7,803 nucleotides of DNA from a virus (taxonomy: Duplodnaviria; Heunggongvirae; Uroviricota; Caudoviricetes), in IMG/VR virus record IMGVR_UViG_2667527898_000008, positions 1 to 7,803 of that record. One strand, given 5' to 3'. This document shows positions 1 through 7,803 of the stretch, in pieces. Below the pieces are notes generated by a model, which was given only the letters and a program-made list of their open reading frames with translations, did no database searches and was not told the DNA's origin. Positions within the stretch are counted from its first letter, which is position 1. Every line of letters begins with the position of its first letter. The translations under genes were made by a program, and so were the position numbers.

Positions 1-159
1 AATCAGAACAATCACGTGGTGATTCAGAACGACGGCCCCAACGGGCGGGCAGAGCCGCAGCTGATGAAAGCGGTGTATGAGATGGCCCGCAAGGGGGCAC
101 AGGATGAACTCCGGCTGCAGTTGCGTGATGGCGGTATGTTATCAGGGAGCGGTGGATGA
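1..159 (+). CDS. H: Tail tape measure protein, C-terminal fragment (5' end lies outside the window)
   Basis: Frame 1 is open from position 1 to a TGA at 157-159 (52 codons, ...LRLQLRDGGMLSGSGG*). It sits immediately upstream of M, where lambda has H, and its stop overlaps the M start (ATGA at 156-159). Identity is by synteny only, not by recognised sequence. Confidence 0.7.
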   Translation, partial: NQNNHVVIQNDGPNGRAEPQLMKAVYEMARKGAQDELRLQLRDGGMLSGSGG

Positions 160-485
160 AAACCTTTCGCTGGAAAGTGAAGCCGGATATGGAGGTGAAC
201 TCGCAGCCATCGGTGCGTGAAGTGCGTTTTGGTGACGGGTACTCACAGCGTATGGCGGCAGGGCTGAATGCTGACCTGAAAACATACCGGGTGATGCTTT
301 CCGTGACCCGGGAGGAGGCCCGGCATCTGGAAGCGTTTCTGGCAGAGCACGGTGGCTGGAAGGCATTTTTGTGGAAGCCACCCTATGCATACCGGCAGAT
401 AAAGGTGACCTGTGCCGGGTGGTCTGCGCGGGTCGGGATGTTGCGCGTTGAGTTCAGCGCGGAGTTTAAGCAGGTGGTGAACTGA
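156..485 (+). CDS. M: Minor tail protein M (tail tip assembly)
   Basis: 109-aa ORF, the same length as lambda gpM and recognisably similar from memory (MKTFRWKVKPDMEV...). SD-like GGGAG lies upstream. The start overlaps the H stop and the stop overlaps the L start. Confidence 0.9.
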   Translation: MKTFRWKVKPDMEVNSQPSVREVRFGDGYSQRMAAGLNADLKTYRVMLSVTREEARHLEAFLAEHGGWKAFLWKPPYAYRQIKVTCAGWSARVGMLRVEFSAEFKQVVN

Positions 486-1183
486 TGCAGGATATTCACG
501 AAGAAAGTCTGAACGAGTCGGTTAAATCAGAGCAGTCACCGCGGGTGGTACTCTGGGAAATCGACCTGACGGTACAGGGCGGTGAGCGGTATTTTTTCTG
601 TAATGAGCTGAATGAAAAAGGGGAGCCGGTCACCTGGCAGGGGCGTAAGTATGAGGCATACCCGATTGACGGCAGCGGTTTTGAGATGAACGGCCGGGGC
701 AGCAGTGCCAGACCGTCGCTGACGGTGTCCAATCTGTTCGGTCTGGTCACCGGGATGGCGGAGGATTTGCAGAGCCTGGTGGGGGCCACGGTGGTCCGCC
801 GCCGGGTGTATGCCCGTTTTCTGGATGCGGTGAATTTCGTTGCGGGCAATCCGGAAGCGGACCCGGAGCAGGAGCTGAGTGACCGCTGGGTGGTGGAGCA
901 GATGTCGCAGCTGACAGCCATGACGGCCTCGTTTGTGCTGGCCACACCGACCGAGACGGACGGGGCGCTGTTTCCCGGTCGTATCATGCTGGCGAACACC
1001 TGTATGTGGACCTACCGCTCTGATGAGTGTGGTTACACGGGCGGGGCTGTGGCGGATGAGTTCGATAAACCCACCACGGATATCCGTAAGGACAGATGCA
1101 GCAAGTGCATGCGCGGGTGTGAACTGCGCAGGAATGTCGGCAATTTTGGCGGTTTCCTTTCCATTAATAAACTTTCGCAGTAA
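485..1183 (+). CDS. L: Minor tail protein L (tail tip assembly)
   Basis: 232-aa ORF, the same length as lambda gpL, with a Cys-rich C-terminus (C173, C182, C205, C208, C212) as expected for the Fe-S-binding gpL. The ATG overlaps the M stop in TGATG (483-487). Confidence 0.9.
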   Translation: MQDIHEESLNESVKSEQSPRVVLWEIDLTVQGGERYFFCNELNEKGEPVTWQGRKYEAYPIDGSGFEMNGRGSSARPSLTVSNLFGLVTGMAEDLQSLVGATVVRRRVYARFLDAVNFVAGNPEADPEQELSDRWVVEQMSQLTAMTASFVLATPTETDGALFPGRIMLANTCMWTYRSDECGYTGGAVADEFDKPTTDIRKDRCSKCMRGCELRRNVGNFGGFLSINKLSQ

Positions 1184-1188
1184 ATCCC

Positions 1189-1932
1189 ATGACACAGACT
1201 GAATCAGCGATTCTGGCGCATGCCCGGCGGTGTGCGCCTGCGGAGTCGTGCGGCTTCGTGATAAGCACGCCGGAGGGCAACCAGTACCAGCCGTGCGTGA
1301 ATATCTCTGCAGAGCCTGAGGCGTATTTTCGTATCGCACCGGAAGACTGGCTGCGGGCAGAGATGCAGGGGGAGATTGTGGCACTGGTCCACAGTCATCC
1401 CGGTGGACTGCCCTGGCTGAGCGAGGCCGACCGGCGGCTGCAGATAAAAAGCGCACTGCCCTGGTGGCTGGTCAGCCGGGGTGACATTCACAAATTCCGC
1501 TGCGTTCCGCACCTGACGGGACGGCGCTTTGCGCACGGGGTGACGGACTGTTACACGCTGTTCCGGGATGCATACCATCTGGCAGGCATTGATATGCCGG
1601 ATTTTCATCGCGGGGATGACTGGTGGTGCAACGGTCAGAACCTTTACCTGGACAATATGGAGGCAACGGGCTTTTACCGGGTGCCCCTGTCCTCTGCACT
1701 GCCGGGCGATATCCTGCTGTGCTGCTTCGGCGCATCGGTGGCTAATCATGCCGCCATTTACTGCGGCAACGGTGAGCTGCTTCACCATCTGCCTGAACAG
1801 CTGAGTAAACGGGAGAGGTATTCCGAAAAATGGCAACGACGAACGCATTCTGTCTGGCGTCACCGCCACTGGCACGCATCTGCCTTCACGGGGATTTACA
1901 ACGATTTGGCCGCCGCCTCAGCCTGTATGTGA
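1189..1932 (+). CDS. K: Tail tip assembly protein K (JAMM/MPN domain plus NlpC/P60-like domain)
   Basis: 247-aa ORF starting 5 nt after the L stop. A complete JAMM motif H-S-H-x7-S-x2-D is at residues 68-81 (HSHPGGLPWLSEAD, nt 1390-1431). An NlpC/P60-like candidate catalytic Cys is in TDCYTLF (C121, nt 1549-1551), with His residues downstream. The 3' 103 nt overlap gene I in another frame; the true 3' end or start may differ from this longest-ORF call. Confidence 0.87.
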   Translation: MTQTESAILAHARRCAPAESCGFVISTPEGNQYQPCVNISAEPEAYFRIAPEDWLRAEMQGEIVALVHSHPGGLPWLSEADRRLQIKSALPWWLVSRGDIHKFRCVPHLTGRRFAHGVTDCYTLFRDAYHLAGIDMPDFHRGDDWWCNGQNLYLDNMEATGFYRVPLSSALPGDILLCCFGASVANHAAIYCGNGELLHHLPEQLSKRERYSEKWQRRTHSVWRHRHWHASAFTGIYNDLAAASACM

Positions 1933-2510
1933 ACACGGCAGCGGAAGCCATCCGCGCACTGTCGATGCAGGTGCCGGGCTTTCGCCGTCAGATGAACGAA
2001 GGCTGGTACCAGATACGCATTGCCGGTGAGGATACGGCACCGGAGGCGGTGTATGCCCGCCTTCACGAACCACTGAGTGAGGGAACGGTTATCCATATTG
2101 TGCCGCGACTGGCCGGGGCCGGAAAGGGTGGACTGCAGATTGTGCTGGGGGCGGCAGCCATCGTGGGCTCTTTCCTCACTGCCGGTGCCTCGATGGCGTT
2201 ATGGGGTACAGCCCTGAGTGCCGGCGGTTTTTCTGCCACCACGATGCTGTTTTCACTGGGGGCCAGCATGATTCTGGGGGGTGTGGCCCAGATGCTGGCC
2301 CCGAAGGCAAAAACACCGGATTACCGCGCAACGGATAACGGCAGACAGAACACGTATTTTTCGTCACTGGACAACATGATTGCCCAGGGTAACCCGATGC
2401 CGGTGCCTTACGGGGAAATGCTGGTTGGCTCCCGCCGTATATCCCAGGACATCAGTACCCGTGATGAAGGCGGGTGCGGAAAGGTCGTGGTTATCGGGCG
2501 GCAGGGGTAA
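1830..2510 (+). CDS. I: Tail tip assembly protein I
   Basis: 226-aa ORF whose N-terminus (MATTNAFCLASPPLARICLHGDLQRF...) and Gly/Ala-rich hydrophobic middle match my recollection of lambda gpI. SD-like GGGAGAGG is at 1811-1818. It lies between K and J. Confidence 0.87.
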   Translation: MATTNAFCLASPPLARICLHGDLQRFGRRLSLYVNTAAEAIRALSMQVPGFRRQMNEGWYQIRIAGEDTAPEAVYARLHEPLSEGTVIHIVPRLAGAGKGGLQIVLGAAAIVGSFLTAGASMALWGTALSAGGFSATTMLFSLGASMILGGVAQMLAPKAKTPDYRATDNGRQNTYFSSLDNMIAQGNPMPVPYGEMLVGSRRISQDISTRDEGGCGKVVVIGRQG

Positions 2511-2517
2511 AAAGAAT

Positions 2518-2552
2518 AAAAAAAATCCCGCAGTGATCGCGGAGCTGCGGGG
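2518..2552 (-). terminator. Intrinsic (rho-independent) terminator for minus-strand transcription
   Basis: On the minus strand a GC-rich hairpin (2527-2533 CCCGCAG pairing with 2545-2551 CTGCGGG, 7 bp, possible extra G-U pair, 9-11 nt loop) is followed by eight U (plus-strand A8 at 2518-2525) and a further U-rich tail. On the plus strand there is no U tract after the hairpin, so it is unidirectional. Confidence 0.6.
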
Positions 2553-2612
2553 ACAGACAAAGATTAGAGTTAAGGAGTTGTTTTTGTTACTCGGGCAAAA
2601 AAACACTAACGC
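2518..2612 (-). ncRNA. Candidate small non-coding RNA (~95 nt) between promoter and terminator, antisense to the I-J intergenic part of the late transcript
   Basis: Defined only by the minus-strand promoter (2619-2646) and terminator (2518-2552). Predicted RNA: GCGUUAGUGUUUUUUUGCCCGAGUAACAAAAACAACUCCUUAACUCUAAUCUUUGUCUGUCCCCGCAGCUCCGCGAUCACUGCGGGAUUUUUUUU. It has no AUG and no purine-rich SD. A 5' stem is possible (UGUUUUU with AAAAACA), followed by a CU-rich single-stranded stretch containing CUCCUUA. No homology to a known RNA family was established. Confidence 0.4.
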
Positions 2613-2618
2613 AGCGAA

Positions 2619-2646
2619 ATTATACGCGCCACAGTCAGTTTGTGAA
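2619..2646 (-). promoter_or_regulatory. Sigma70-type promoter on the minus strand (-35 TTCACA, 16-bp spacer, -10 TATAAT)
   Basis: Minus-strand reading: TTCACA (plus 2641-2646), 16 bp, TATAAT (plus 2619-2624). The -10 is a perfect consensus and the -35 matches 5 of 6. Predicted start site is near plus coordinate 2611-2613. It lies in an AT-rich island flanked by GC-rich tail genes. Confidence 0.5.
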
Positions 2647-2718
2647 AATGTGAAGATATTCAGAATTTTTATGCCATTACCGGTTTTTACCAACAGGATT
2701 ATCGGTGGACATGAAAGA

Positions 2719-2754
2719 AAACCCCGGTATCTGCTGATACCGGGGTTTCTCTTT
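2719..2754. terminator. Perfect palindrome hairpin flanked by an A tract and a T tract; candidate bidirectional intrinsic terminator
   Basis: CCCCGGTATC (2722-2731), loop TGCT, GATACCGGGG (2736-2745) forms a 10-bp perfect stem, extendable to 13 bp with the flanking AAA and TTT. It is followed by TTTCTCTTT on the plus strand and preceded by AAAGAAAA, which gives a U-rich tail on the minus strand as well. Confidence 0.5.
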
Positions 2755-2851
2755 AGCATGGCAGAAATGTGTTTCATGCTTTTCGGGCGAAGGATATCCG
2801 ACTTCTGTACGGAATGGCAAGTGGCGGTTAATTTATTCAGGGGAAGGCTGT

Positions 2852-5800
2852 ATGGGAAAAGGTGGCGGTAAGGCACACACGCCTCGTGAGGCGAAGGATA
2901 ATCTCAAATCCACGCAGATGATGAGCGTGATTGATGCGGTTGGTGAGGGACCGATAGAAGGCCCGGTGAAGGGACTGCAGAGTATCCTGGTGAACAAAAC
3001 CCCGCTGACGGACACGGACGGTAATCCCGTGATACACGGTGTGACGGCGGTCTGGCGCGCCGGGGAGCAGGAGCAGACACCACCGGAAGGCTTTGAGTCC
3101 TCCGGAGCTGAAACTGTACTGGGCGTGGAAGTGACGAAGGCAAAACCGGTGACGCGCACCATTACGTCCGCGAACATTGACCGCCTGCGGGTTACCTTCG
3201 GGGTGCAGTCACTGGTGCAGACCACGTCAAAGGGTGACCGAAACCCGACATCCGTCCGCCTGCTGATTCAGTTACAGCGTAACGGTAACTGGGTGACAGA
3301 AAAGGATGTCACCATTAACGGCAAGACCACCTCGCAGTTTCTGGCGTCGGTGATTCTGGATAATCTGCCTCCCCGTCCTTTTAACATCCGGATGGTCCGG
3401 GAGACGGCGGACAGCACCACGGACCAGTTGCAGAACAGAACACTCTGGTCATCGTACACCGAAATCATCGATGTGAAACAGTGCTACCCGAACACGGCGA
3501 TTGTGGGGCTGCAGGTGGATGCGGAGCAGTTCGGTGGTCAGCAGATGACGGTGAACTACCATATCCGCGGTCGCATCATCCAGGTGCCGTCAAACTATGA
3601 CCCGGAAAAACGCACCTACAGCGGTATCTGGGACGGCAGTCTGAAACCGGCATACAGCAACAACCCGGCCTGGTGCCTGTGGGACATGCTGACTCACCCG
3701 CGCTACGGGATGGGAAAACGCCTGGGGGCGGCGGATGTGGACAAGTGGGCGCTGTATGCCATCGGGCAGTACTGCGACCAGACGGTCCCGGATGGTTTCG
3801 GGGGCACAGAGCCGCGGATGACCTTTAATGCGTACCTGGCACAACAGCGTAAGGCGTGGGACGTTCTCAGTGATTTCTGCTCGGCGATGCGCTGTATGCC
3901 GGTATGGAACGGCCAGACGCTGACGTTCGTTCAGGACCGCCCGTCGGATGTGGTGTGGCCGTACACCAACAGCGATGTGGTGGTGGATGATAACGGCGTG
4001 GGGTTCCGCTACAGCTTCAGTGCCCTGAAGGACCGGCACACGGCGGTGGAGGTGAATTACACCGACCCGCAGAACGGCTGGCAGACCTCCACGGAACTGG
4101 TGGAAGACCCGGAAGCCATACTGCGCTACGGACGCAATCTGCTGAAGATGGATGCGTTTGGCTGTACCAGCCGCGGTCAGGCTCACCGTGCAGGTCTGTG
4201 GGTGATAAAGACCGAACTGCTGGAAACGCAGACGGTGGACTTCACGCTCGGGTCACAGGGGCTGCGTCACACACCGGGTGACATTATTGAAATCTGTGAT
4301 AACGACTATGCCGGGACTATGACCGGCGGACGTATCCTGTCCATTGATGCTGCCACCCGCACCCTGACGCTGGACCGTGAGGTTACCCTGCCGGAGACAG
4401 GTACATCGGCGGTGAACCTGATTAACGGCAGCGGTAAGCCGGTGAGTGTGGACATCACCGCACACCCCGCGCCGGACCGGATACAGGTCAGTACCCTGCC
4501 TGATGGTGTGGAGACATACGGTGTGTGGGGACTCTCCCTGCCGTCACTGCGCCGTCGCCTGTTCCGCTGTGTCTCCATCCGGGAAAACACGGACGGCACC
4601 TTTGCCATCACGGCGGTGCAGCACGTACCGGAAAAAGAAGCCATTGTGGATAACGGAGCCCGCTTTGAGCCGCAGTCAGGCACCCTGAACAGCGTTATCC
4701 CACCGGCAGTACAGCACCTCACGGTGGAGGTGAGCGCAGCTGACAGCCAGTATCTGGCGCTGGCGAAATGGGACACGCCGAGGGTGGTGAAGGGCGTGCG
4801 CTTCAGTCTGCGCCTGACCAGTGGAAGCGATGAGAACAGCCGCCTGCTGACCACCGCCATCACTGCCGATACGGAGCACCGTTTCAGTGGCCTGCCTCTC
4901 GGGGAATACACCCTGACGGTCAGGGCGATAAACAGCTACGGCCAGCAGGGCGAACCCGCCACCACCACGTTCCGGATTAACGCACCGGCAGCGCCTGCCG
5001 GTGTTGAACTGACGCCGGGGTATTTTCAGATAACGGCAGTCCCGAAACTGACCATTTATGACCCGACGGTGCAGTTTGAGTTCTGGTTTTCGGAGGCAAA
5101 AATTGCAGACGCCGCACAGGTGGAAACCTCTGCCCGTTATCTGGGGACCGGCAGTCAGTGGAGTGTCTCCGGTCCGCACATTAAGCCCGGAAAGGATTTC
5201 TGGTTTTATGTGCGCAGCGTCAACCTGGTGGGTAAATCTGCTTTTGTGGAAGCCAGTGGACGGGCGAGCAATGATGCTGCGGGCTATCTGGAGTTTTTCC
5301 GGGAAAAGATAGGAAAAACACATCTGGCAGAGGCGCTGTGGGCAGAGATTGACAACAGCAAGCTGAAGGACGAGATGGCGGAAATGCAGACCACCATCAC
5401 AGAAACCCGCAATGAAATCACGCAGACGGTCAGTAAAACGCTGGAGGACCAGAGCGCCACCATACAGCAGATACAGCGCGTGCAGAAGGACACAAATGAT
5501 GACCTTGCTGCACTTTACATGCTGAAGGTACAGAAAACAAAAAATGGCATACCCTATGTTGCCGGTATTGGAGCGGGGATTGAGGATACTGATGGCCAGC
5601 CCCTGAGCAACATACTGCTGCTGGCTGACCGTATTGCGATGATTAACCCGGAGGACGGCAACACCACGCCGTTATTTGTGGCGCAGGGGAATCAGTTGTT
5701 CATGAACGATGTGTTCCTGAAGCGGCTGTTTGCGGTGAGTATCACCTCGTCCGGCAATCCCCCTACGTTCTCCCTGACGCCGGAAGGCAGGCTGACGGCC

Positions 5801-6382
5801 CGTAATGCGGATATCAGCGGACATATCAGTGCGAACTCGGGCACGCTGAATAATGTCGTGATAGCGGAGAACTGTACCATCAAAGGTACTCTGAGAGCGG
5901 AAAATATCATTGGCGATGTGGTGAAAACGCACAATGTCAGTCTTCCTGATCTCAGGGCTGCAGGGGAGCACAGACACGCGACAGAACGAACGGTTACTGT
6001 CATTGATGATCAGTCGTTTGACCGGAATATTGTTATCCCGCCGGTTTTTTATTCCGGTATTATCTACAAAGGAAGTGATGGTGACGGTGCGACCTCAATC
6101 TGTACGCTGACGGTGAGTGTGAATGATCGGGTGGTGTTCAGCAAAACCTCATCCATCGGTACCAGGCGTACGTCAGGGGGATACCCCGTTCAGGAAGACA
6201 CCATATATCCCGGGTCATCCACTCCGTTCAGCTATTTCATGAGGATGGCGTCAGGGGGAGGTGATGTCAGGATCAAGTTCCGGATTGAGGTCATCTATTA
6301 TGGAACTGCACCGGGTTTTATGACCACAGGGATACAGATCACAACGATGAAGGCGTCAGCTTCAGGATTTGTGGAAAGTTAA
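2852..6382 (+). CDS. J: Tail tip host-specificity protein J (central tail fibre, receptor binding)
   Basis: 1176-aa ORF. The N-terminus ([22 protein letters not shown]...) and long internal stretches (for example [36 protein letters not shown] and [33 protein letters not shown]) match my recollection of lambda gpJ. SD GGAAGG is 4 nt upstream of the ATG. Size and position after I fit. Confidence 0.95.
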
Positions 6383-6703
6383 TCCCGGACGATCGTGATT
6401 GCCGGAAGGAGACAAAAACCGCACAGTATGCGCGGGTGCCTTTGGCTGATGGCCGGAGGGAACACCTGAAAGCCTGATGTGAAAAGGCCCCGAGTCAACT
6501 TCAATGTTAACCCGAGGCCCTGATCCGTCTATCTTAAGCAAGTGGCAGGTTAGCGCCTCTCCGTAATAAGGAGCAAGTGCTGTGTCGCAAAAACCACCGT
6601 GATTTGTATCACTGTAGTGCTCATTATCTGGATCACCCACCGTTCACTGTGTGAATTCCGGTTCCGGATAGCACCTTTTTAATCCTGTAAACCACGATTT
6701 TTA

Positions 6704-6738
6704 CCGCAGACCGGGAAACCGGCACTGCGGTTTTTTTT
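6704..6738 (+). terminator. Intrinsic terminator on the plus strand, immediately upstream of stf
   Basis: Two-tier hairpin: outer stem CCGCAG (6704-6709) with CTGCGG (6725-6730), inner stem CCGG with CCGG closing a GAAA tetraloop (6715-6718), followed by T8 (6731-6738). The minus-strand side is A-rich after the hairpin, so it is unidirectional. Confidence 0.65.
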
Positions 6739-6751
6739 ATGGGGAAAATCT

Positions 6752-7803
6752 ATGACAGTCAGAATATCGGGCGTGCTGAAGGACGGCACCGGGAAGCCGG
6801 TGCCGGGATGCACCATTGAACTGAAAGCCCTGCGCACCACGGAGACAGTGATTGTCACCACGGTGGCGCAGGGGCAGCCGGGGGAAACCGGCAGTTACAG
6901 TTTTGATGTGGAGCCGGGGTGGTACCGGGTGACGCTGAACACGGAAGGGTACGCCCCGTCGTATGTGGGTGACATTCTGGTGAAGGCGGATTCTGAGCCG
7001 GGAACGCTGAATAAATTTCTGATGGAACAGGATGAGGCGCAGTATTACCCGAAAGCGCTTGCAGAGCTGGAAGCGGTGGCAGCGGAAATCCTGAAGCGTG
7101 CTGAAGCGTCGGCGGCGAGTGCAGAGGAAGCGAAGAAACGGGCAGAGAATGCCCGGGGACCGGCGGGCGAGAAGGGGGACACAGGTCCACAGGGTGCCAC
7201 AGGGGCACAGGGACCAGCCGGGGCAACGGGGGCGGTCGGACCAAAAGGTGAGCCGGGGCCAAAGGGAGAACGGGGAGAAACAGGTCCACAGGGACCGAAG
7301 GGCGATAAAGGTGACCCGGGCGGACCGCCGGGGCCGAAAGGTGACACCGGCCCACGTGGAGAGGCCGGACCACCCGGACCACAGGGTCCGGCAGGGCAAA
7401 CCGGCCCGAAAGGGGATAAAGGTGAACCCGGCGCAACAGGTCCGGCAGGTCCCGCAGGCCCTCGGGGAGAAACCGGCCCCGCAGGTCCTGCGGGTCCCGC
7501 AGGCAGTGTCGCCAGTGTTCCGGATGCCAGCACATCACAGAAAGGTGTTGTACAGCTGAGCAGCGATACCAACAGCGATGATGAAACAAAAGCGGCAACC
7601 CCAAAGGCTGTGAAAGCGGTAATGGCAGAAGTGCAGGCAGCAAAAACGAAGGCAGAAGAGGCAGCAACCCGGGCAGCAGTCCCCGGACCGAAGGGGGACA
7701 GGGGGGAACCTGGCGCACCTGGTGTAGTGGGGCCCGCAGGCCCTCAGGGACCGGCTGGTGCAGCCGGAGCCAAAGGTGCCCCGGGGCCAAAAGGGGACAA
7801 AGG
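6752..7803 (+). CDS. stf: Side tail fibre protein with collagen-like Gly-X-Y repeats (5' part; 3' end lies outside the window)
   Basis: The frame is open from ATG 6752 to the window end (350 codons, checked by hand). It is absent from the ORF track only because it has no stop inside the window. The N-terminus ([26 protein letters not shown]...) resembles the lambda Stf N-terminus as I recall it. SD-like GGGGAAAA is upstream. Long Gly-X-Y tracts follow an Ala/Glu-rich helical segment. Confidence 0.85.
7157..7504 (+). repeat. Collagen-like Gly-X-Y coding repeat, tract 1 (about 38 triplets, residues 136-251 of Stf)
   Basis: Translation shows uninterrupted G-X-Y periodicity ([22 protein letters not shown]...) with a single one-residue register interruption at G190/G191 (nt 7319-7324). 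The GC-rich, Pro-coding DNA produces the spurious antisense ORFs 6855-7790 and 7045-7572. Confidence 0.85.
7685..7803 (+). repeat. Collagen-like Gly-X-Y coding repeat, tract 2 (continues beyond the window)
   Basis: [39 protein letters not shown]. It is separated from tract 1 by a 60-residue non-collagen linker ([60 protein letters not shown]). The 13-bp direct repeat CCCGCAGGCCCTC occurs at 7451-7463 and 7733-7745. Confidence 0.8.

Follow-up and report, generated by a model that had tools for sequence, protein, structure and literature searches.

The window analysed here, a stretch of 7,803 nucleotides (nt) from a Caudoviricetes virus record (IMGVR_UViG_2667527898_000008, positions 1 to 7,803), ends inside a side tail fibre (stf-like) gene, only the 5' part of which is present, the C-terminus lying beyond the window. 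The gene is assigned to the EPclC class of collagen-like side tail fibres, from a lambda-like, P-Eib-type Escherichia coli prophage, with a probability of about 0.9. Its open reading frame (ORF) runs on the plus strand from ATG at 6752 to the window end, giving 350 codons in translation without a stop, and GGGGA was found at 6741-6745, six bases before the ATG. The protein class, its domain order, its interruption and its length variation are already known from 2012, when four architectures, EPclA to EPclD, were described for the collagen-like proteins of enterohaemorrhagic E. coli prophages (Ghosh et al. 2012, PLoS One 7:e37872, PMC3368898), so the fold is not novel, as an earlier note on this DNA had also said. 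The features of the gene in the window are as follows.

6752..7803, plus strand: side tail fibre gene (stf-like, very probably EPclC-type collagen-like), 5' part, 350 codons, from translation, Pfam, DNA identity and position
6752..7153, plus strand: N-terminal domain (PfN/phage_tail_N), amino acids (aa) 1-134, predicted tail-attachment collar domain with a C-terminal helix, from PF08400
7157..7318, plus strand: collagen tract 1a, 18 perfect Gly-X-Y triplets, aa 136-189, from translation
7310..7333, plus strand: register interruption GDPGGPPG, aa 187-194, with the extra Gly G190 at nt 7319-7321, from translation and published consensus
7322..7501, plus strand: collagen tract 1b, 20 Gly-X-Y triplets (21 counting GSV), aa 191-250, length-variable among near-identical alleles
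7529..7654, plus strand: Pf2 (phage tail fibre repeat, PF03406) at aa 260-301 of the spacer, with a predicted helix after it to about aa 308
7685..7801, plus strand: start of collagen tract 2 (13 triplets, aa 312-350), which continues past the window end

The order described for EPclC is PfN-Col-Pf2-Col, mostly lacking a PCoil and ending in a C-terminus that has no relation to PfC (PMC3368898), and the same order was found in the window gene. PfN (PF08400) occupied aa 1-134, within the non-repetitive aa 1-135, and two Col domains (136-250, and 312-350 continuing past the window end) were split by Pf2 (260-301). PCoil was absent or short, as collagen began at aa 136, immediately behind the PfN domain. 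The first Col contained a single G-x-P-G-G-P-x-G, which was the only break in the tract, and homologues of M, L, K, I and J upstream in the window made up a prophage tail module. PfC (PF06820) gave no match at E<=0.01 in the closest full-length relatives (L003, L004 and L007). The best phage match was orf-401 of P-EibA (98.4% by megablast, and 99.0% over 1,049 aligned nt by global alignment, with one 3-nt indel), and DNA identity to this gene and to the prophage gene of E. coli DETEC-S792 was 99.0-99.2%. P-EibA ORF-401 (479 aa; collagen lengths 117 and 75) is listed as EPclC in Table 3 of PMC3368898.

The Pfam Collagen model (PF01391) matched the partial protein with E=1.8e-24, which assigned the region to the collagen family and not to another fold, and the Gly-X-Y periodicity is far above chance. 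About 38 triplets in tract 1 and a second tract from residue 312 had been counted in the earlier note; both were recovered, with 18 + 20 triplets in tract 1 and 13 more to the window end, while tract 2 comprised 25 triplets in the closest full-length relative. The best PDB sequence matches of the nearest full-length relative (L003) were type I collagen chains (E=5e-73). Over the 51 triplets of the window, X was Pro (49%), Asp/Glu (29%) or Ala (18%), and Y was Lys/Arg (31%), Ala (24%), Thr (16%), Pro (16%) or Gln (10%), with no Cys, Phe, His, Trp or Tyr among them. These preferences match the published profile for E. coli prophage collagen-like proteins, in which X is Pro in 48% and Asp/Glu in 36%, and Y is Lys/Arg in 31%, Ala in 21% and Thr in 20% (PMC3368898 Table 4). 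Taken with the matches to PF08400 and PF03406 and the gene position after J, the collagen match bears out the side tail fibre with true collagen tracts that had been proposed.

PF08400, 'Prophage tail fibre N-terminal', matched aa 1-134 over the full length of the model (E=3.3e-42), and this domain was 52% identical to lambda Stf aa 1-129. The nearest full-length relative matched PDB 9E7M/9MGH, the collar domain of the Ur-lambda side fibre (residues 1-91), with E=4e-29. In Ur-lambda, the collar on gpV/gpM is made by residues 1-91 of Stf, after which come a proximal coiled-coil rod (102-393) and a hinge (394-422) (PMC12617516). Judged by these matches, the N-terminal domain of the stf-like protein is a homologue of the tail-docking collar domain of lambda Stf. 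The spacer between the collagen tracts (aa 251-311) is non-collagen and about 60 residues long, the length given for it in the earlier note; it is no plain linker, as that note had it, for Phage_fiber_2 (PF03406) was identified at aa 260-301 (E=5e-16, Pfam). The Pf2 stretch was 56% identical to lambda Stf aa 339-390, where Pfam places Pf2 of lambda Stf at 358-396, and it matched Mu tail fibre protein S (PDB 5YVQ/8JU3) with E=2.5e-5. Since lambda Stf aligned at aa 1-129 and again at Pf2, collagen tract 1 sits exactly where lambda Stf has its Ala/Ser-rich proximal coiled coil. An AlphaFold2 monomer of the closest full-length relative, P0001, made from a 32-sequence alignment, had a mean predicted local distance difference test (pLDDT) score of 42 and a predicted template modelling (pTM) score of 0.26, and only its secondary-structure outline was used, with caution; this low-confidence model placed strands at aa 3-77 and helices at 96-134 and 284-308.

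Tract 1 had a single register break, GDPGGPPG at aa 187-194, which carried the extra G190, and the doublet G190-G191 at nt 7319-7324 lay exactly where the earlier note had put it. G-x-P-G-G-P-x-G is the conserved interruption consensus in prophage collagen-like proteins (PMC3368898), and the window motif fits it exactly. Among the 120 best database homologues, which formed the homologue survey, 58 carried exactly one such motif (GDPGGPxG in 56 of the 58), and other register breaks were nearly absent from the collagen tracts, with a single exception. The position of the interruption differed by allele class, being after 10, 18-19, 24 or 27-28 triplets. Since the motif is retained at several positions depending on allele class, the interruption is, as these alignments read, a conserved inherited feature and no random slip. 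By the same comparison it is dispensable, because the motif was missing in 62 of the 120 homologues, including P0017, in which a precise deletion of tract 1a takes out the extra Gly and restores the uninterrupted register. In each of the three chains the extra Gly would move the register on by one residue, and it probably makes a local irregularity, a flexible point or soft spot; it may also introduce a kink. As a separate observation, the E. coli NCTC9112 allele L010 had Gly187 changed to Cys (GGT>TGT) at the equivalent of nt 7310, in the triplet right before the interruption, which is either a genuine replacement of a tract glycine or an error in sequencing.

Length was compared among nine loci with near-identical 5' parts (97.7-99.2%, global alignment), seven of them from complete E. 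coli genomes and two from phage records. Tract 1 had the architecture [19]-1-[13, 15, 17 or 20] triplets, and tract 2 had 25, 30, 31, 33, 37 or 39 triplets. In the 2012 description, too, Col lengths usually differ by a multiple of three residues (PMC3368898). Three tract 1 deletions were found; in window numbering the missing DNA is 7347-7373 (27 nt), 7428-7472 (45 nt) or 7385-7447 (63 nt), every length being a multiple of 9 nt, and exact microhomologies of 4-5 nt (CCGG, CCGGC and GGTCC) were present at their junctions; a separate 9-nt deletion at the spacer start, 7504-7512, was found with CAGTGT. The contexts of the tract 1 junctions were identical at 25-31 of 48 nt, against an in-register background of 19 +/- 6. 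Among 5,426 complete genomes there were 38 near-identical alleles, most of which aligned to tract 1 without length difference, and only three allele groups showed differences, of 27, 45 or 63+9 nt. Since most of the 38 alleles share the tract 1 length, length variation is slow and evolutionary, with neither frequent slippage nor a hypervariable locus. Repeat numbers were thus not identical throughout, and the variation between related prophages foreseen in the earlier note was seen (13-20 triplets in tract 1b, 25-39 in tract 2), while frequent slippage was not, most alleles being equal.

Some single alleles and relatives showed other changes. The truncated allele of SCU-104 (L005), whose stf is annotated by PGAP as two pseudogene fragments, was examined for a slippage frameshift, which was rejected; a CAG>TAG nonsense substitution in tract 2 was found to inactivate the allele, with no indel. 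In P0089 a 15-aa unit (45 nt of DNA) was repeated eight times in genuine tandem, tract 1 was fused to tract 2 with loss of Pf2 in P0059, and P0006 had a frameshift at the end of tract 2.

At the DNA level repetition was low, because the Gly codons in the tracts are spread nearly evenly (GGT 15, GGA 14, GGG 13 and GGC 9). The repeat proposed earlier as a substrate for slippage or recombination, and the long ORFs that overlap the gene, are these.

7451..7463, plus strand: 13-mer CCCGCAGGCCCTC, copy 1, encoding part of GPAGPR
7733..7745, plus strand: 13-mer CCCGCAGGCCCTC, copy 2, encoding part of GPAGPQ
6855..7790, minus strand: longest antisense ORF, 311 aa, from the ORF list, no Pfam match
6737..7399, minus strand: antisense ORF, 220 aa, from the ORF list, no Pfam match
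7045..7572, minus strand: antisense ORF, 175 aa, from the ORF list, no Pfam match
7098..7559, plus strand: other-frame ORF, 153 aa, from the ORF list, no Pfam match

Both copies of the 13-mer were where the earlier note had placed them, within a 68-nt duplication (7401-7468 and 7683-7750, 76% identical) which encodes GPKGD(K/R)GEPGA..GPAGP(R/Q)G in both tracts. When synonymous codons were permuted with the protein kept, an exact direct repeat of >=13 nt was present in 59% of 2,000 shuffles, and the longest exact repeat of the region itself was 14 nt. The peptide GPAGP occurs five times, which is sufficient to yield such 13-nt repeats. The 13-mer was rejected as a special recombination substrate, being expected from the peptide alone and ending none of the three tract 1 deletions. 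Repeated 11-mers numbered 15, against a shuffle mean of 7.4 +/- 4.3, and 6% of the synonymous shuffles reached 15. The guanine-plus-cytosine (GC) content of the window peaked at 71% in 7201-7500, where the long overlapping ORFs also lie. Long spurious antisense ORFs, also predicted in the earlier note, were confirmed as three on the minus strand, to which a fourth on the plus strand is added; with no Pfam match in any of them, the four overlapping ORFs are best read as by-products of GC-rich, stop-poor Gly-Pro coding DNA.

The length differences among alleles otherwise 98-99% identical, and the tandem array of the relative P0089, would agree with a fast-switching, contingency-type locus, at which replication slippage between repeats such as the 13-mer would change fibre length often within a lineage. 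Such a locus is improbable here. High-identity tandem DNA repeats, the trait of contingency or phase-variable loci, were lacking, for Tandem Repeats Finder revealed no array in the window but only 2-copy scraps of 9-10 nt, and the direct-repeat families in the collagen-coding DNA were only 60-78% identical. The longest exact repeat (13-14 nt) was as predicted by the peptide sequence alone, the 13-mer lay at the end of no tract 1 deletion, and most of the 38 alleles were equal in tract 1 length while three groups differed. The repeat-number differences might also be artefacts of assembling or sequencing a GC-rich repetitive region, in which many database homologues are partial and end within the collagen tracts on short contigs, P0006 is frameshifted, and a 3-nt difference in the old P-EibA record breaks the register. 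This explanation is very improbable for the compared alleles, which come from RefSeq 'complete genome' assemblies, and in which all tract 1 indels were exact multiples of 9 nt, with frame and Gly register kept. The same variants recurred in independent genomes (three SW0716xx, two JE86), and the same pattern was reported independently by Ghosh et al. (PMC3368898).

The extra Gly could be a neutral inherited scar of an old fusion of two collagen modules, with no role as kink or hinge, and this account is a tenable one, though it is not the favoured one. GDPGGPxG with similar flanks in alleles otherwise different all around fits common descent, and the 62 homologues without the motif, including P0017 with its register restored, fit a dispensable feature. 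On the other side, the tracts tolerate no register break of another kind, bar one exception, and this one is kept at each of the distances from the tract start given above. An analogy is offered by C1q and mannose-binding lectin, in which single interruptions give bends. For the protein as a whole, the neighbourhood of the gene in relatives, with virulence-type cargo genes (YadA-like Eib and an S6 autotransporter), and the link to pathogenic strains raised by Ghosh et al. (PMC3368898) would suit a collagen-like adhesin or virulence factor of the bacterial surface, comparable to streptococcal Scl, which the prophage carries as cargo and which is not part of the virion. This is extremely improbable, since the N-terminal domain is homologous to the tail-binding collar domain of lambda Stf, the gene is at the stf position directly after J, the best-matched PHROG families were all tail fibre families, and the same gene is found in deposited phage isolates whose stated host is E. 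coli K-12 MG1655 or E. coli C. A literature search on the PhiR12/PhiR5 phages bearing the gene gave nothing useful.

If the gene encodes an EPclC-class side tail fibre, as is preferred here, the window would cover the proximal two thirds of a homotrimeric fibre. Three N-terminal domains (aa 1 to about 91) would attach to the tube and the tip of the tail in the manner of Ur-lambda Stf, and a short helix (aa about 96-134, in the low-confidence model of P0001) may join the three chains. Collagen tract 1, with 115 aa, would form a triple-helical rod of about 33 nm (at 0.286 nm per residue), and Pf2 with the following helix (about aa 284-308) could be a node re-registering the chains, adjoining the hinge position of lambda Stf. 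Collagen tract 2 would be the distal shaft, about 75 aa or 21 nm in the closest relative, and a small exchangeable C-terminal head would stand at its end, beyond the window. As for the DNA, biased and non-tandem Gly-Pro coding sequence would now and then permit in-register indels, in multiples of 9 nt, where there are short microhomologies, as well as crossovers between co-resident prophage copies, so that over evolutionary time shaft length would change and heads would swap. Multiples of 9 nt would be seen because selection keeps only the events which preserve the Gly register. Collagen DNA would be a poor substrate for slippage, but it could serve for rare recombination of the illegitimate or homeologous kind.

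Several points weigh against this picture. Comparison of sequences cannot tell deletion from insertion in the indels, nor slippage from recombination as their mechanism, and some short or odd architectures among the database proteins may be assembly errors. The triple helix of EPclC-type proteins is carried over from EPclA and from composition; EPclA was described as a dumbbell-shaped trimer, its stalk hinged, with a collagen circular dichroism spectrum and a melting temperature of 42 C (PMC3368898). The monomer model of P0001 is uninformative at a mean pLDDT of 42, the kink or hinge at the extra Gly would be an expectation from analogy, and the head type of the window gene is taken from its last 78 nt (7726-7803), which were identical to the DETEC-S792 allele.

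Three unrelated C-terminal heads (..LFQRIV, ..GLFQRAY and ..IGIDNGM) followed a common tract 2 start, allele similarity stopped inside tract 2 (at about nt 7723 in one class and about 7778 in another), and at least 15 different C-termini were present on the same PfN-collagen scaffold among the 120 homologues. A Pfam scan of the C-terminal heads of relatives gave no family. Genomes with a match had a median of 3 matching places and a maximum of 7, so recombination partners are at hand, and in NCTC9112, for example, there were two alleles whose heads differ. Between 6854 and its end, the window and the DETEC-S792 allele (L003), which bears a P-EibA-type head, had one difference, at 7725, while seven differences were clustered at 6817-6853. 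The J-stf spacer (6383-6751) was identical to that of E. coli NCTC9112 in 369/369 nt, and only a 21-codon hypothetical ORF is annotated there. The window itself is, on this pattern of differences, a mosaic, with an NCTC9112-like J-stf spacer and a DETEC-S792-like part from 6854.

It is a speculative and rather unlikely idea that the collagen tracts, tract 2 above all, are preferred crossover zones for head exchange and shaft-length tuning, with the one-glycine insertion as a functional hinge. It is suggested because low-information Gly-Pro coding sequence is common to many co-resident prophages, and if it were true, shaft length could be tuned, for example to O-antigen or capsule thickness. 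The data include head junctions inside tract 2 and in-register indels; they show neither an enrichment of breakpoints there beyond that left by selection on folded domains alone, nor any bearing of shaft length or the extra Gly on function. The joints of the mosaic in tract 2 exemplify the swapping of receptor-binding heads by prophages, of relevance to host-range prediction and to the engineering of fibres of defined length. For annotation, the gene should be named collagen-like side tail fibre (EPclC type) and its spacer Pf2 repeat, the four long overlapping ORFs should be ignored, and assemblies which break or collapse in the collagen region should be handled with care.

A lambda-like tail module was identified in the window, consisting of M (156-485), L (485-1183), K (1189-1932), I (to 2510) and J (2852-6382), then the stf-like gene; the tail genes were identified by PHROG families and by how they are annotated in the closest genome, that of E. 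coli NCTC9112 (96.7% over 7.7 kb). One further feature was located before the stf start.

6703..6739, plus strand: terminator-like hairpin followed by U8, 12 nt before the stf start, -22.1 kcal/mol, z = -4.25, 0/200 shuffles fold as well

If this hairpin is an intrinsic terminator, stf expression would require read-through or antitermination from the late operon. The J-stf spacer contained no lom gene, unlike lambda, P-EibA and E. coli DETEC-S792.

The gap between I and J (2511-2851, 342 nt) had a low GC content of 47%. On its minus strand, a promoter-like TTCACA-N16-TATAAT (2646->2619) was near consensus (11/12), and a terminator-like hairpin CCCGCAG..CUGCGGG with U8 (2549->2519) was about 70 nt beyond this promoter-like site. 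The two (2519-2646, minus strand) could delimit a candidate small RNA, about 90 nt long, that would be antisense to the tail operon; its fold z-score was only -1.36. An Rfam scan of the whole window gave no family at gathering score, and when 2450-2900 was scanned permissively, all matches stayed below threshold and at the level of chance. A perfect 14-bp inverted repeat, AAAACCCCGGTATC-TGCT-GATACCGGGGTTTT, was also observed in this gap at 2718-2749.

Downstream of stf in relatives, a gene for a DUF4376 protein (191-223 aa) was located where lambda has Tfa. One of these proteins (L007) showed a weak Caudo_TAP match (E=1e-3), and it was the only relative to do so. In L001, L003, L009 and L010 a gene for YadA-like immunoglobulin-binding Eib came next after the DUF4376 gene, and in P-EibA and DETEC-S792 an EaaA/S6-type autotransporter gene was present further downstream too.

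Compared with known systems, the window gene shares with lambda Stf (that of Ur-lambda, which is orf-401 + orf-314 in lambda PaPa) a homologous N-terminal collar domain, the Pf2 repeat and the gene position after J, and presumably the same tail attachment and the same role in speeding adsorption. The proximal rod of lambda Stf is an Ala/Ser-rich coiled coil of about 290 aa, whereas a collagen triple helix of 115 aa would stand here, and its distal part is gp37-like, whereas a second collagen tract and a small head of about 95 aa would be found here. Downstream, lambda has the Tfa chaperone gene and the relatives of the window stf have the DUF4376 protein gene. The gp37-like distal domain with downstream Tfa (Caudo_TAP), a trait of the lambda Stf family, was not found, judged on full-length relatives, the C-termini of which (the region beyond the window) gave no Collar or Phage_fiber match in Pfam. 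C1q, the collectins, Bacillus anthracis BclA, streptococcal Scl and phage HylP have likewise a Gly-X-Y triple-helical stalk with trimerising non-collagen domains, strain-polymorphic repeat number and tolerance of single interruptions. There is no homology to this group beyond Gly-X-Y, and here the stalk would belong to a virion fibre with a lambda Stf-type collar anchor.

EPclA and EPclB (E. coli O157:H7 ECs2717 and Z1483) are closer, with PfN, Col of the same X/Y preferences and a trimeric side-tail-fibre role, and EPclB also has Col-Pf2-Col and the same interruption. In these proteins a PCoil of 109-116 aa lies between PfN and Col and the end is PfC (PF06820), whereas here Col comes right after PfN and PfC was not matched in the closest full-length relatives. 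P-EibA ORF-401 (AAF63232) differs by one codon (window 7374-7376), which is missing from the P-EibA record, and by the lom gene between J and stf in P-EibA, which the window does not have. It shares with the window gene the domain order with one interruption, the lack of a long PCoil, a Col1 of about 117 aa and the location after J in a P-Eib-type prophage.

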